Assembly (NCBI GenBank): GCA_049609665.1
Contig: JBMYYT010000022.1
Span: 1 to 17,975 of the forward strand
Source of the DNA: Flavobacteriales bacterium
GTDB taxonomy: Bacteria; Bacteroidota; Bacteroidia; Flavobacteriales_D; CAJJDF01
Direction: 5' to 3'
DNA length: 17,975 nucleotides
The notes under the pieces are model-generated. The model had not been told where the DNA came from and searched no databases. It worked only from the letters and a program-made list of their open reading frames with translations. This document shows, in pieces, positions 8,770-9,562 of the stretch. How positions within the stretch are numbered: the stretch's first letter is position 1; each line of letters starts with the position of its first letter. A program made the translations under genes and the position numbers.

Positions 8770-8865
8770 TGGAACAGATAGGACTCCCTTCGATAAACTC
8801 AGGACAGGCTACCCTATATCTCTGGTTCTTCAAACCAGCGCAATGACCATCTTTGCTACTATTCC
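8770..8865 (-). ncRNA. tRNA-Phe(GAA)-like gene, 96 nt, carrying a ~23-nt insertion of the conserved palindromic module in its T-loop
   Basis: Minus-strand RNA parses as follows. Acceptor 5' strand GGAAUAG, UA, D-arm GCAA-AGAUGGUCA-UUGC, G, anticodon arm CUGGU-UUGAAGA-ACCAG (GAA), variable AGAU. Then T-stem AUAGG, a 30-nt loop G-UAGCCUGUCCUGAGUUUAUCGAAGGG-AGU, T-stem CCUAU, acceptor 3' strand CUGUUCC and discriminator A. The acceptor pairs 7/7 with one G:U. The T-stem is identical to that of the 9563-9635 tRNA. Confidence 0.5.
8786..8810. repeat. Copy 1 of the short near-palindromic module (consensus CCCTTCGAc...GCTCAGG), inside the T-loop of the Phe-like gene
   Basis: cccttcgataaactcaggacaggct, inserted directly after the first three T-loop nucleotides (ACT) on the plus strand. 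Confidence 0.6.
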
Positions 8866-8870
8866 ATTTT

Positions 8871-8944
8871 GGGTGATTTCGGGGCTCGAACCCTGTTCAT
8901 CTCTGCCACAAAGAGACGTTTTACCACATAAACTAAAACCACCA
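8871..8944 (-). tRNA. tRNA-His(GUG)-like, with an imperfect T-stem and candidate G(-1)/C73
   Basis: Anticodon arm UCUCU-UUGUGGC-AGAGA, anticodon GUG. D-arm GUUU-AUGUGGUA-AAAC. A candidate G(-1) precedes GUGGUUU, which pairs with ...AAAUCAC-C. The T-arm CAGGG-UUCGAGC-CCCGA has only 3 clean base pairs. The variable loop is 4 nt. Confidence 0.45.
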
Positions 8945-8949
8945 TGTTG

Positions 8950-9086
8950 TTAACCCGGTAGGACTCCCTTCGACTATCGCTCAGGACAGGCTTCATTTTT
9001 CCAAAATGAACCTACATCCTAAGACTCAAAATCTTATGTGCTCCCGCTTGTACTGAGCTTAGTCGAAGTATTACACTACAGGTTAA
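8950..9086 (-). ncRNA. tRNA-Gln(UUG)-like gene, U1:A72, 137 nt, with a ~41-nt insertion of the conserved module in the T-loop and a second partial copy in the D-region
   Basis: The T-stem GTAGG/CCTAC (8958-8962 and 9011-9015) is the same stem as in the Tyr tRNA. It encloses a 48-nt loop that begins ACT and ends TGAA on the plus strand, so the canonical ACTTGAA is interrupted after ACT. Anticodon arm is UAAGA-UUUUGAG-UCUUA on the RNA, anticodon UUG. D-arm GCUC-AGUACAAGCGG-GAGC. Acceptor strands UAACCUG / CGGGUUA pair with one G:U. An extra ~20 nt, including CTGAGCTTAGTCGAAG, lies between the acceptor 5' strand and the D-stem. Confidence 0.4.
8966..8992. repeat. Copy 2 of the module, inside the T-loop of the Gln-like gene
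   Basis: cccttcgactatcgctcaggacaggcttc, inserted after ACT of the T-loop. A third, partial copy ctgagcttagtcgaag lies at 9053-9068 in the same gene. Confidence 0.6.
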
Positions 9087-9090
9087 TTTG

Positions 9091-9162
9091 TAGACTTAAC
9101 AAGACTCGAACTCGTATCTCTGGGTCCGTAGCCCAGTATGTTATCCGTTACACTATAAATCT
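9091..9162 (-). tRNA. tRNA-Arg(ACG)-like with A1:U72 and a 4-nt variable loop
   Basis: Minus-strand RNA reads AGAUUUA-UA-GUGU-AACGGAUA-ACAU-A-CUGGG-CUACGGA-CCCAG-AGAU-ACGAG-UUCGAGU-CUUGU-UAAGUCU-A. The anticodon loop CUACGGA gives ACG. All stems pair, with G:U wobbles. Confidence 0.55.
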
Positions 9163-9173
9163 ATTTTCGTTAG

Positions 9174-9247
9174 TACCCCTTCCCAGATTCGAACTGGGAC
9201 TGTAAGCAGTTTAAGTGCCATGCCTCTGCCAATTGGGCTAAAGGGGT
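9174..9247 (-). tRNA. Non-canonical tRNA with anticodon UAA (Leu-reading) but a short 5-nt variable loop and A1:U72
   Basis: Minus-strand RNA reads ACCCCUU-UA-GCC-CAAUUGGCAGA-GGC-A-UGGCA-CUUAAAC-UGCUU-ACAGU-CCCAG-UUCGAAU-CUGGG-AAGGGGU-A. The T-arm is perfect and canonical (TTCGAAT), and the acceptor is a perfect 7 bp. The anticodon stem has 4 bp plus one mismatch. There is no long variable arm, although bacterial tRNA-Leu needs one. Confidence 0.5.
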
Positions 9248-9253
9248 GTAATG

Positions 9254-9340
9254 GTACAGGGAGAGAGATTCCCTTCGACAAAGTTTATCTTGAGCGAAGT
9301 CGAAAGGCTCAGGGTAAACTTCTCATCTCTCTCATTGTAT
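9254..9340 (-). pseudogene. tRNA 3' fragment duplicating the 3' end of the adjacent 9359-9432 gene, with a ~60-nt module insertion in the T-loop; D and anticodon arms are absent
   Basis: gtACAGGGAGAGAGATT at 9254-9270 is identical to 9358-9374, covering the acceptor, T-stem and the first three loop nucleotides. It is followed by cccttcgacaaagtttatcttgagcgaagtcgaaaggctcagggtaaac, then ...tctcatctctctc, which closes against GAGAG. Confidence 0.45.
9271..9320. repeat. Copy 3 of the module, a double copy with A-B-A'-B' arrangement, in the T-loop of the 3' tRNA fragment
   Basis: cccttcgacaaagtttatcttgagcgaagtcgaaaggctcagggtaaac, inserted after ATT of the T-loop. It contains CCCTTCGAC and its near-complement GTCGAAAGG, plus GCTCAGGG. 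Confidence 0.6.
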
Positions 9341-9358
9341 TTTTATAGAACTATTTTG

Positions 9359-9432
9359 TACAGGGAGAGAGATTCGAACTCTCAGGATTCTTGTGTCTAA
9401 AACAAGCGCGTTTGCCATTTCGCCATCCCTGC
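9359..9432 (-). tRNA. Non-canonical tRNA with anticodon UAG (Leu CUN-reading), a short 6-nt variable loop and G1:U72
   Basis: Minus-strand RNA reads GCAGGGA-UG-GCG-AAAUGGCAAA-CGC-G-CUUGU-UUUAGAC-ACAAG-AAUCCU-GAGAG-UUCGAAU-CUCUC-UCCCUGU-A. The anticodon stem and T-arm are perfect. Confidence 0.5.
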
Positions 9433-9436
9433 ATAG

Positions 9437-9556
9437 TTAAGGTGTTGGGATTTCTTTCACCTAAGTGAAAGAAAAGTTTACCCTGAGCGCAGTCGAAGGG
9501 AACCCAAGACTTCTGCGATATCAGCACAGTACTCTACCAACTGAGTTACACCTTAA
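9437..9556 (-). ncRNA. tRNA-Ile(GAU)-like gene, U1:A72, ~119 nt, with a 48-nt insertion of the conserved module (inverted orientation) in the T-loop
   Basis: Minus-strand RNA parses as follows. Acceptor 5' strand UAAGGUG, UA, D-arm ACUC-AGUUGGUA-GAGU, A, anticodon arm CUGUG-CUGAUAU-CGCAG (GAU), variable AAGUC. Then T-stem UUGGG, loop UUCC[CUUCGACUGCGCUCAGGGUAAACUUUUCUUUCACUUAGGUGAAAGAAA]U, T-stem CCCAA and acceptor 3' strand CACCUUA. The acceptor is a perfect 7 bp. The plus-strand loop begins ATT and ends GAA. Confidence 0.5.
9476..9500. repeat. Copy 4 of the module, inverted orientation, inside the T-loop of the Ile-like gene
   Basis: gtttaccctgagcgcagtcgaaggg. It is the reverse orientation of copy 3's 3' half; the identical GTTTACCCTGAGC lies at 9308-9320 on the other strand. 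Confidence 0.6.
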
Positions 9557-9562
9557 TTTTTG

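Follow-up and report, generated by a model that had tools for sequence, protein, structure and literature searches.

Three tRNA genes within a single bacterial array, those for Phe, Gln and Ile, carry a related short sequence at the same point of their T-loops, which raises the question of whether this sequence is a working part of the RNA or repeat DNA that has settled in the genes. The original prediction had read the three as complete tRNA bodies with interrupted T-loops, and had proposed a T-loop-targeting mobile element or MITE, an RNA handle for the adjacent SPFH or repair proteins, or an archaeal-style spliced element.

The tRNA array and its interrupted members

The window, that is, the whole stretch of 17,975 nucleotides analyzed here, carries a tRNA array on its minus strand, in which ARAGORN called ten normal tRNAs at 8871-10256; the proteins of the surrounding island are of the Bacteroidota RNA-repair type (RtcB, an RF-1-domain protein, two copies of RlaP, a phosphoesterase, an ATP-grasp-like protein and SPFH). 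No transposase or recombinase, and no RAYT gene, was identified in the 18-kb window, and the island proteins showed neither an EndA-like nor any other nuclease domain. Comparison with related loci (designated by L numbers) shows that the array is accessory, being absent from the 99%-related strain L081 and the 71% relative L082. A phage origin of the array was rejected, with no megablast match in the phage collection and chromosomal Bacteroidota genes as neighbors. The genes for Phe(GAA), Gln(UUG) and Ile(GAU), also on the minus strand, have otherwise intact cloverleaves with 23-47 extra nt at the T-loop center, TTC^GA(A/G)T. The features are as follows:

8725-8755, minus strand: intrinsic-terminator-like hairpin immediately 3' of Phe, its sequence kept in L081, L082 and L083; probable 3' end of the array transcript.
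8769-8865, minus strand: tRNA-Phe(GAA), with a T-loop of 30 nt against the normal 7 and intact acceptor, D, anticodon and T stems (splice test, partial Rfam match, orthologs in L083, L084 and L001).
8786-8809, minus strand: A-type module in the Phe T-loop, about +23 nt, in RNA sense AGCCUGUCCUGAGUUUAUCGAAGG (repeat families D8 and D10, ortholog alignment, motif count).
8871-10256, minus strand: accessory tRNA array with His, Arg, two Leu, Ile-UAU, two Ser, Tyr, Glu and Cys, all canonical (ARAGORN, Rfam).
8950-9086, minus strand: tRNA-Gln(UUG), with inserts in the D-loop and T-loop and intact acceptor, anticodon and T stems (hand parse, orthologs, MFE fold).
8967-9007, minus strand: Gln T-loop insert of 41 nt between C56 and G57 (ortholog alignment, motif count, repeat families).
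9049-9072, minus strand: Gln D-loop insert of 24 nt, with the module inverted, CUUCGACUAAGCUCAG (gap versus orthologs; family D9).
9254-9340, minus strand: orphan duplicate of the 3' part of Leu(UAG), comprising a 9-bp T-stem and the acceptor 3' strand CCUGUAC (18 nt repeated exactly from Leu(UAG) 9358-9375, family D20).
9436-9556, minus strand: tRNA-Ile(GAU), whose T-loop measures 53 nt and whose four stems are intact (splice test, partial Rfam match, alignment).
9453-9499, minus strand: about 46 nt inserted into the Ile T-loop at TTC^(G)AAT (motif count, ortholog alignment).

On the native sequence, neither ARAGORN nor Rfam called a full tRNA at the Phe, Gln or Ile unit, and the Rfam matches over Phe (8800-8865, 29.8 bits) and Ile (9491-9553, 22.7 bits) are partial and weak. 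In a splice test, in which the long T-loop was swapped in silico for TTCGAAT before running ARAGORN, tRNA-Phe(GAA) was recovered at 8769-8865 and tRNA-Ile(GAU) at 9436-9555; Gln(UUG) was delimited at 8950-9086 by a hand parse and ortholog alignment. Together with the intact stems, these results bear out the predicted complete but T-loop-interrupted bodies. The stems of the three genes show no sign of decay, which could reflect either recency or selection. With T-loops of 30 (Phe), 48 (Gln) and 53 nt (Ile), all three depart from a canonical elongator tRNA, defined by a 7-nt T-loop, T54-A58 and the G18/G19-psi55/C56 elbow contacts.

The Gln T-loop insert joins an AT-rich hairpin (UUCAUUUUGGAAAAAUGAA, which shares TTC) to an A-type module (AGCCUGUCCUGAGCGAUAGUCGAAGG); the Ile insert combines a module of opposite orientation (the plus strand reads AAGTTTAC-CCTGAGCGCAGTCGAAGG) with an AT-rich 10-bp hairpin. 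Junctions are clean in Gln and Ile (TTC^insert^GAGT/(G)AAT, positions 56/57) and ambiguous by 1-2 nt in Phe, whose module also has a copy in the 99%-related strain (L081:958-1019). The motif CCTGAG-N4-7-TCGAAGG occurs three times in the window (8787-8803 and 8967-8985, minus; 9482-9499, plus) against 0.00 expected from 200 shuffles. Both module orientations are thus present within a single array, as expected for an event at the DNA level. The further copies that had been predicted, namely a fourth in 9254-9340, a partial one in the Gln D-region at 9053-9068 and the inverted one in Ile, were recovered among repeat families D8-D11 and pairs I2, I9 and I11. The Gln D-loop insert is complementary to the Gln T-loop insert, with a duplex energy of -26.2 kcal/mol versus -10.2 +/- 2.5 for shuffles, and the two are paired in the MFE fold.

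The loop of the orphan Leu fragment contains a composite module (9271-9320) with the layout A-B'-A'-B. The fragment is kept in L083:8905-8995 at 87% identity, with spacers scrambled between both lineages; L163 has a simpler tandem form of the module, and related units are found in L163 and L131. The fragment interior matches the Ile insert at 86% identity over 28 nt (D11) and is 94% complementary to it over 18 nt (I2). Of the pseudoknot envisaged for this module, the alternating layout stands and the fold is doubtful: the MFE structure is a hairpin only, and a full pseudoknot is sterically questionable because its 15-bp stem and the 3' strand of its second stem lie only 1 nt apart.

Ancestral tRNA genes and a dispersed repeat

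Phe and Gln genes with 7-nt T-loops and normal D-loops occupy matching array positions in L083, L084 and L001, whose SPFH proteins are 72, 68 and 67% identical, and Ile-type genes with the same two loop features do so in L083, L001 and L007. Relative to these orthologs, the Phe T-loop has gained 23 nt, the Gln D-loop 24 and T-loop 41, and the Ile T-loop 46; because the orthologous genes are normal, the extra sequences are insertions, and they postdate the split of the source lineage from these relatives. Repeat copies have thus been pasted as DNA into loop positions of the Phe, Gln and Ile genes, at the T-loop center and in one D-loop. In the ortholog alignment, the T-stems of Phe (ATAGG/CCTAT) and Gln (GTAGG/CCTAC) prove ancestral, as does the loop remainder GAGT. 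L081 is rearranged, with a breakpoint within T-arms.

The module of the window, AGCCTGY-CCTGAGC-GNA-GTCGAAGGG, is an instance of a repeat unit of about 25 nt, here called unit A, in which a prefix, (A/G)GCCTGY or AAGTTTAC, precedes CCTGAGC-GNA-GTCGAAGGG. More than 120 stretches of metagenome contigs, a lower bound, match CCTGAGC-N3-5-GTCGAAGGG. Among the matches listed, a sample of 80 loci (400 kb, median GC 57%) was inspected and contains 87 copies, which share a 25-nt consensus without conserved flanks; 84 of the 87 have a 3-nt spacer, mostly G-N-A, many have the prefix GCCTGC of the Phe and Gln copies, and several contigs hold two or three copies or tandem clusters. A mismatch-tolerant count within the same listed matches gives strong inverted partners to ~7% and strong direct partners to ~12% of the copies, a strict regular expression finding few inverted ones. 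Only 2 of the 87 listed copies have a tRNA within 400 nt, and A-like copies also lie at non-tRNA sites of the SPFH loci L032, L054, L016, L025 and L069. This is the outcome that the original prediction had named as its own refutation: in metagenome contigs, among the matches listed, the module is a common dispersed repeat found overwhelmingly at non-tRNA sites. Judging from these other genomes, unit A is probably dispersed in the source genome itself as well.

Pairing within unit A is limited to CCCT/AGGG and a possible GNA mini-hairpin, and its fold is no better than that of shuffles (z -0.9 to +1.1); neither DNA nor RNA folding predicts anything beyond 4-5 bp, so that a self-contained hairpin is unsupported. 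The Phe insert of the window likewise has no stable helix (-3.4 kcal/mol). The unit A consensus shows neither terminal inverted repeats nor a 5' GT[AG]G tetranucleotide, and no known RNA family or ribozyme was found within the inserts in Rfam at E<=5. The resemblance that AGUCGAAGG bears to hammerhead cores or the 16S colicin-E3 site, judged by eye, was discarded as weak; the motif is explained by its dispersed distribution.

T-loop inserts in other SPFH-linked arrays

In a comparison set of 51 SPFH-linked tRNA arrays from Bacteroidota, about 20 credible T-loop-insert tRNAs were found in about 17 arrays, or about a third, where other short palindromes take the place of unit A; T-loop insertion is a family trait of these arrays. 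The further insert types, B (CCTGCCTGCCGGCAGGCAGG), C (CCCGATAGCTATCGGG) and D, are unrelated in sequence between genomes. B and C are perfect palindromes and also occur scattered over unrelated viral contigs (35 stretches for B, 51 for C); in general collections, about 3 of 42 B copies are near or in tRNAs, and within SPFH loci both types cluster within ~6 kb upstream of SPFH. Inserts of the B/C type extend the T-arm to a near-perfect hairpin of 16-18 bp, which reaches -20.6 kcal/mol for the Asn genes of L027 and L068. Standard tRNA finders miss such array members, three in the window and about 20 more in related loci.

Between L032 and L069, the only difference in the Asn genes is a palindrome of 22 nt placed exactly at TTC^GAAT, and the same insert recurs identically in a diverged Asn gene of L066. 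This empty/filled pair, which on sequence comparison would represent a recent gain or loss, has no target-site duplication (GTTC^22 nt^GAAT).

Within arrays, 18 of 34 repeat copies (53%) lie in a T-arm context, against 12.8% of random windows scored by the same classifier, and the T-loop preference beats a model of tolerance at any non-essential position (P=0.004) even when 30% of array DNA is taken as permissive. The preference inside tRNA arrays is real. No sequence target explains it, and the non-tRNA flanks of B lack a consensus. Enclosing stems of at least 7 bp surround 11% of A and 12% of C copies versus 1-2% of random positions, B having no apex bias; the notion that every repeat copy sits in a hairpin apex was accordingly rejected, as it applies to a minority of A and C copies and to none of B. 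The T-loop-center preference in about a third of SPFH-linked arrays, with its clean empty/filled alleles, is the less ordinary part of the findings. Literature searches on T-loop repeat insertions, on SPFH with tRNA-like RNAs and on the literal sequences found nothing directly relevant.

Probable selfish repeat DNA and its alternatives

The reading we favor, with a probability of about 60%, is that the module is REP-like repeat DNA that was pasted, in one orientation or the other, into the loop-coding DNA of dispensable array tRNA genes; it has the look of selfish DNA, and not of an intron or of an RNA module made by design. Repeat hits would be tolerated because the arrays are dispensable and variable, and the DNA of T-arm loops or hairpin apices may be favored, whether because insertion or recombination prefers it or because selection spares such copies. 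The mover may be a transposase of the RAYT or IS200/605 type that acts on single-stranded DNA hairpins, or resident copies may recombine with one another. In the transcripts the elbow would be disrupted, the normal T-loop being gone and Gln acquiring a D/T duplex of 13-15 bp; therefore, the Phe, Gln and Ile genes most likely yield non-canonical or non-functional tRNAs, and not spliced or purpose-built RNAs. Several observations weigh against this reading: a T-loop preference in excess of the tolerance model, stems free of decay, the conserved Leu-fragment module, the clustering of B and C upstream of SPFH, and a window in which no transposase or recombinase was identified. If this ordinary reading holds, the locus is a clear, datable case of short repeat DNA colonizing structural RNA genes, and a caution that recurring modules in tRNA-like genes need not be designed RNA parts. 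Of the original options the mobile element comes closest, in that T-loops are preferred inside arrays; specificity for T-loops does not survive the counts outside them (2 of 87 A copies among the matches listed, about 3 of 42 for B), nor does the label of MITE, since unit A lacks terminal inverted repeats and the L032/L069 pair a target-site duplication.

The same selfish DNA may instead have spread from the resident copy in the Leu 3' fragment, one T-arm recombining homologously with another or converting it, a route that we regard as very unlikely. It would account for the similarity of the Ile insert to the fragment interior and for AGCCTGTCCTGAG...TCGAAGGGAGTCCTA, common to Phe and Gln and including loop remainder and T-stem (D8, D10); moreover, T-arms are near-palindromic and mutually similar, the L081 rearrangement breaks in them, and orphan T-arm/acceptor fragments are classic by-products of recombination (PMC9897764). 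However, the shared Phe/Gln flank needs no conversion because the T-stems and GAGT are ancestral, for which reason an argument that the Phe T-arm was converted from Gln was dropped; the left junctions are unlike, and the Phe/Gln prefix GCCTGY is of the dispersed-copy type, not the AAGTTTAC of the fragment.

A functional expansion of the T-arm and elbow appears unlikely, though it has observations in its favor. The arrays would keep tRNA-like RNAs with an extra T-loop element captured from repeat DNA, withheld from translation and offered to tRNA-targeting nucleases as decoys or sponges, or to SPFH, RtcB or RlaP as handles or substrates; the Gln D- and T-loop inserts could pair into a rigid extended elbow, and Ile could find a partner in trans in Phe or Gln. 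The over-represented T-loop context, the occurrence of such genes in about one third of arrays, the intact Phe, Gln and Ile bodies and the conservation of the Leu-fragment unit (87% between window and L083, with relatives in L163 and L131) would all fit, as would the MFE pairing in Gln and duplexes of -26 to -41 kcal/mol, far stabler than shuffles. A sponge role has already been proposed for array tRNAs (PMC8421152). Yet the Phe, Gln and Ile-type genes are normal in orthologous arrays with the same neighboring proteins, two thirds of the arrays are insert-free, and identical Asn genes differ by insert presence; the A, B, C and D inserts are unrelated between genomes, both orientations occur, and the inserted sequences are common at non-tRNA sites. 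Inverted copies of one repeat are automatically complementary, and unit A by itself folds no better than shuffles. On the same evidence of normal orthologs, insert-free arrays, differing sequences, both orientations and shuffle-like folding, the proposed RNA handle for SPFH or repair proteins finds no support. Distinctly improbable, too, is the stronger proposal that SPFH-RtcB-RlaP islands maintain elbow-disabled tRNA-like RNAs, formed by drawing short repeats into the T-loop center and at times the D-loop, as repair or anti-ribotoxin decoys or substrates, or that a dedicated process inserts units at TTC^GAA; if true, acceptor and anticodon arms would be kept while normal recognition by the ribosome, RNase P and T-loop-binding factors would be barred.

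Only a remote chance is given to removal at the RNA level, by which RNase III acting on the extended T-arm, or an unknown endonuclease, would cut out the inserts and leave halves that are held together or rejoined by RtcB into working tRNAs. The island encodes RtcB, which in archaea and animals is the tRNA-splicing ligase, B/C inserts provide near-perfect T-arm hairpins of 16-18 bp, and the tRNA bodies are intact. RNase III, however, leaves 5'-P/3'-OH ends, which by established enzymology are not joined by RtcB, and the Phe insert has no stable helix; in the island the partner of RtcB is an RF-1-domain (PrfH-like) protein, a combination familiar from ribosome rescue and repair, and insert-free arrays carry the same genes. 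Archaeal tRNA introns, which can occupy T-arm positions and are rejoined by RtcB, differ as well: by hand inspection, the three junctions give at most 2-4 weak pairs without the 3-4-3 geometry of a bulge-helix-bulge, the island proteins include no EndA-like or other nuclease domain, and non-tRNA sites carry the same sequence in abundance. The archaeal-style spliced element is thus left without support. In bacterial 23S rRNA, intervening sequences in helices 25 and 45, sporadic among strains, replace the apical loop by a stem-loop whose excision by RNase III is proven; A-type inserts are poor helices by comparison, whereas B/C-type inserts elsewhere form helices of sufficient length. Group I tRNA introns (>200 nt, P1-P9 core, anticodon loop) were rightly set aside from the outset, the inserts being 23-47 nt, located in T- and D-loops and without an Rfam intron match at E<=5. 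The arrays offer a testable system both for the movement of tiny repeats (hairpin-loop targeting in single-stranded DNA versus recombination) and for array tRNAs as translators versus decoys in RNA-damage conflicts.

The favored reading of selfish repeat DNA can be set against known repeats. REP/REPIN elements, mobilized by the RAYT Y1 transposase, are likewise short (20-30 nt) and non-coding, with many copies in diverse genomes, often in clusters or inverted pairs and some on terminator hairpins; they are imperfect palindromes, B and C perfect ones and unit A probably a weak one. Unlike them, the window copies occupy a defined loop position within structural RNA genes; classic REPs are lineage-specific, whereas unit A spans very different GC contents, and RAYT in the 18-kb window, the 5' GT[AG]G and a unit A self-hairpin beyond 4-5 bp are all missing. 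Rickettsia palindromic elements are small non-coding hairpin repeats that invade functional genes, and mitochondrial hairpin elements and GC clusters invade functional genes including rRNA while sparing the surrounding structure (PMC2444032, PMC2800124). Both belong to organelles or obligate intracellular bacteria and to rRNA or protein genes; descriptions of them do not include tRNA arrays of free-living bacteria invaded at the T-loop center.

The tRNA operons linked to rtcB are also accessory and variable and lie beside RNA-processing genes, their long arrays including some pseudogenes, according to PMC8421152 and the survey PMC4758250, whose passages on these operons do not mention T-loop insertions. 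Unlike these operons, the array of the window has an SPFH/slipin gene and a permuted tRNA-like element linked to it. This element, at ~8250-8570 between the array and SPFH, has a weak YrlA match and is distinct from the T-loop inserts, which form no part of it. Burroughs and Aravind are said to have described, in NAR in 2016, SPFH/Band-7-associated tRNA-like and Y-RNA-like (YrlA) modules of RNA-repair systems; these share the setting of the window, with an SPFH gene, RNA-repair enzymes and tRNA-like RNAs; T-loop inserts are absent from most such islands.

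Extra sequence in the array tRNA genes

Parsed on the minus strand, the Phe, Gln and Ile genes of the array each carry, within an enlarged T-loop, a copy of the module that the original prediction had placed there (A unit, conserved over ~25 nt); as it had also stated, a fourth copy lies in a tRNA 3' fragment, here recognized as an orphan Leu(UAG) part, the Ile copy is inverted, and the Gln D-region holds a partial copy. The analysis reads the latter, too, in the inverted form.

Insert-bearing genes of the window
Phe(GAA), minus strand: T-loop 30 nt, +23 nt relative to orthologs; acceptor, D, anticodon and T stems intact
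Gln(UUG), minus strand: T-loop 48 nt (+41 nt) and D-region enlarged in its loop (+24 nt) relative to orthologs
Ile(GAU), minus strand: T-loop 53 nt, +46 nt relative to orthologs
9254-9340, minus strand: fragment, 3' part of the neighboring Leu(UAG) (18 nt identical), module in its loop

Three matches to the core CCTGAG-N4-7-TCGAAGG are present in the window (0.00 expected), two in one orientation and that of Ile in the other. Every stem of the three host genes is intact, which is compatible with recent insertion or with selection. The pseudoknot proposed for the fragment is sterically unlikely, its minimum free energy (MFE) structure showing a hairpin alone.

SPFH homologs number in the thousands, and 80 genome loci plus 5 closer ones were fetched around them; most have a same-strand tRNA array just upstream of SPFH, often alongside RtcB, RF-1-domain and RlaP genes. 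In the closest informative relatives (L083, L084 and L001, with 72%, 68% and 67% SPFH identity), the Phe and Gln genes, colinear with those of the window, have canonical TTCGAGT/TTCGAAT T-loops, and the Gln D-loop is normal; the Ile-type genes of L083, L001 and L007 also have normal T-loops. The Gln and Ile junctions are clean (TTC^...^GAGT/(G)AAT), falling between positions 56 and 57, and as judged from these alignments the extra sequences of Phe, Gln and Ile are insertions. The Leu fragment, whose composite module occupies the same place in L083 (87% identity) beside an unalignable spacer, is older; a simpler tandem form lies 3' of Leu(UAG) in L163, an array from a metagenome.

Two features of the latter array (10 tRNAs in 1 kb) stand out at L163:101-198 and 905-1024: tandem 62-nt repeats of the Leu 3' fragment with a simple A-B module, and a Cys(GCA) gene in whose T-loop TCGAAC is preceded by an A-like module. 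Within the window, a Pro-like pseudo-tRNA (~9735-9830, minus strand) shares its acceptor with the array's tRNA-Pro family, has a C-type hairpin (TCCCGATATAAAATCGGGA) in place of the anticodon arm and an enlarged D-region, and carries a T-loop, AGCCTGAAT, that is possibly the footprint of an A-type module.

Dispersal of the repeats

A metagenome scan with the pattern CCTGAGC-N3-5-GTCGAAGGG matched more than 120 stretches. Among the matches listed, 87 copies in 80 loci were inspected: their contigs are highly diverse (GC 38-69%), several hold 2-3 copies or tandem/inverted clusters, and the unit is conserved over ~25 nt with unconserved flanks. The spacer is 3 nt in 84 of the 87, mostly G-N-A; many copies have the prefix (A/G)GCCTGC, comparable to the AGCCTGT of window Phe and Gln, and a few have AAGTTTAC, as do the window Ile and fragment copies. 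Only 2 of these 87 listed copies have a tRNA within 400 nt, and A-like copies in SPFH loci also occupy non-tRNA sites; those of L054, for example, form a large inverted repeat. The module is a dispersed repeat, the very result that the original prediction had set as the refutation of a module specific to T-loops. By its properties it is REP-like, a likeness rather than an assignment; the literature search found no published name for it, no RAYT gene turned up, and on its own the unit has no more stable a predicted fold than shuffled sequences.

The RtcB coding sequence contains an in-frame A-like motif, CCTGAGCGGAGTCGAAGG (…AWKEVLSGVEGRSKEVIVHRKGA…), at L002:15231, L003:13110 and L034:15592; this may be a chance match or a repeat that entered a protein gene. 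A 9.5-kb metagenome contig has, close to each of its ends (L131:215-275 and 9150-9210), one of two directly oriented units, each a T-arm-like hairpin with an A-type module followed by an acceptor 3' strand and CCA. The pair is reminiscent of the att sites that an element integrating at the 3' end of a tRNA would leave.

Other arrays have T-loop insertions as well. When candidate long T-loops were swapped for a 7-nt loop and called with ARAGORN, ~20 credible insert-bearing tRNAs emerged in ~17 of 51 arrays, with inserts at the T-stem/TTCGA boundary or exactly inside TTC^GAAT.

Other insert types
Type B: CCTGCCTGCCGGCAGGCAGG and variants
Type C: CCCGAT-NNNN-ATCGGG
Type D: two-hairpin element

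A type B insert makes a single long, perfect hairpin of the entire T-arm (-20.6 kcal/mol for Asn of L027 and L068). A clean empty/filled pair is formed by the Asn genes of L032 and L069, whose only difference is a 22-nt palindrome at TTC^GAAT, inserted without duplication of the target; the same insert recurs unchanged in a diverged Asn gene (L066) and as a loop variant in the L069 Val gene. Such a pattern is characteristic of DNA events that were recent and repeated and drew on a homogeneous pool, and would not be expected of an old conserved RNA domain.

Dispersed copies of types B and C turn up in viral contigs unrelated to each other, in 35 and 51 stretches, rarely at tRNA sites. There the 20-nt palindrome B lies in a tRNA D-loop (L237:515) and beside a tRNA-Met variable region (L230:2284); a flank near-identical to the latter, at L207:8616, is not called as a tRNA. 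Palindrome C, of 16 nt, occupies the apical loop of terminator-like hairpins (L264:4892, L280:11629, L290:1730).

Setting and dispensability of the array

The window DNA is chromosomal, Bacteroidota-like and of low GC (34%), encoding a Por_Secre_tail protein, Omp85 and PHO4; megablast of the array gave no phage match, which speaks against phage DNA. The genes considered here all lie on the minus strand.

Island genes in transcription order (all minus strand)
1: RtcB fragment
2: RF-1-domain (PrfH-like) protein
3: TPR protein
4: calcineurin-like phosphoesterase (metallophosphoesterase)
5: two RlaP nucleotidyltransferases
6: 395-aa protein without family match
7: ATP-grasp-like (RimK-like) protein, weak match
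8: 10256 down to 8769, tRNA array
9: 8755-8725, intrinsic terminator
10: ~450 nt of tRNA-like pieces
11: 8000-6894, SPFH/slipin gene

The RNA-repair set spans 10480-17956 and is reshuffled among relatives (RtcB-RlaP-RlaP in L083, RtcB-RF1 in L082, two RtcB plus TatD in L084). RtcB has an RF-1-domain protein beside it in the island, and such a pair is known from ribosome rescue (background: PMC6514570). The array has 10 canonical tRNAs by ARAGORN, and its tRNA-Ser(UGA) (9644-9729), called Ser by ARAGORN while scoring 50.7 against the Rfam tRNA-Sec gathering threshold of 47, is in all likelihood a normal tRNA with a long variable arm.

The array can be missing. L082 (71%) has repair genes and SPFH without it, and the strain L081 (SPFH 99% identical, flanks ~95%) lacks both array and repair genes at the locus. 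Its homology starts within Phe, with the T-loop module and the 3' end of the gene; the contig is of low coverage and the exact junction is to be read cautiously. Long rtcB-linked tRNA arrays are known as accessory, stress-induced and partly pseudogenized (PMC8421152; survey PMC4758250), and recombination at tRNA genes typically leaves orphan T-arm/acceptor fragments behind (PMC9897764).

In L081:880-1360, compared with window 8720-8890, an inverted 24-nt His/Phe boundary piece precedes the Phe remnant, possibly through chimerism, and an extra 110-aa ORF precedes the terminator. Between array terminator and SPFH, a conserved chain of tRNA-like pieces (8250-8570, minus strand) runs from T-arm and acceptor 3' strand through a tiny loop to acceptor 5' strand and D-arm, a permuted, Y-RNA-like order; we take it to be probably the SPFH-associated tRNA-like RNA of Burroughs and Aravind (2016). 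The chain recurs at L081:1540-1840, L082:9420-9720, L083:9420-9720, L010:9582, L027:9622, L038:9526 and L056:2098, and a YrlA match at 8380-8483 is weak (32 bits, gathering score 69). One tRNA-like gene contains a 34-nt tandem duplication of D-arm and anticodon arm (8354-8420, minus strand; copies 85% identical), with CUA (amber-like) and GAU in its two 7-nt loops.

Loop preference and competing explanations

Of the 34 A/B/C copies located in arrays, 18 have a T-arm context, compared with 12.8% of random windows under the same classifier; T-loops make up ~5% of array DNA, and if tolerance is set generously, with 30% of positions open to insertion, P is still 0.004. Non-tRNA copies of A and C are over-represented at the tips of locus-specific hairpins (11-12% have an enclosing stem of 7 bp or more, versus 1-2% of random positions); B copies show neither this enrichment nor a flanking consensus. 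A bias towards hairpin loops, or T-loops specifically, exists, and could reflect selection, targeting, or recombination at T-arms, which are near-palindromic.

The best-supported account, with a probability of roughly 0.6, is insertion of selfish short-repeat DNA at positions that encode loops, in array tRNA genes that are dispensable. The original prediction was right in its observation, and of its three interpretations the mobile element survives in part. Spread of copies inside the array by recombination, a sub-variant, seems improbable. A functional expansion of the tRNA elbow is an unlikely but more credible option. The proposed RNA handle for neighboring proteins fares poorly: the same proteins stand beside arrays of normal genes, and the inserts vary by genome and occur in both orientations. 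The inverted Gln copies do pair in the MFE structure because they sit in both the D- and T-loops (-26.2 kcal/mol; shuffles -10.2 +/- 2.5), and trans duplexes are predicted for Ile with Gln (-41 kcal/mol) and with Phe (-28 kcal/mol); inverted copies of one repeat are automatically complementary, and such pairing is therefore no evidence of design. Excision of the inserts at the RNA level is very improbable, with two results counting against its archaeal form: the junctions lack a bulge-helix-bulge, and no EndA-like domain was found in the island proteins.

No description of recurrent insertion at the T-loop center in bacterial tRNA arrays was found in the literature. Its nearest known parallels are REP-type repeats, rRNA intervening sequences and the hairpin repeats with which rRNA genes of mitochondria have been invaded (PMC2444032, PMC2800124).
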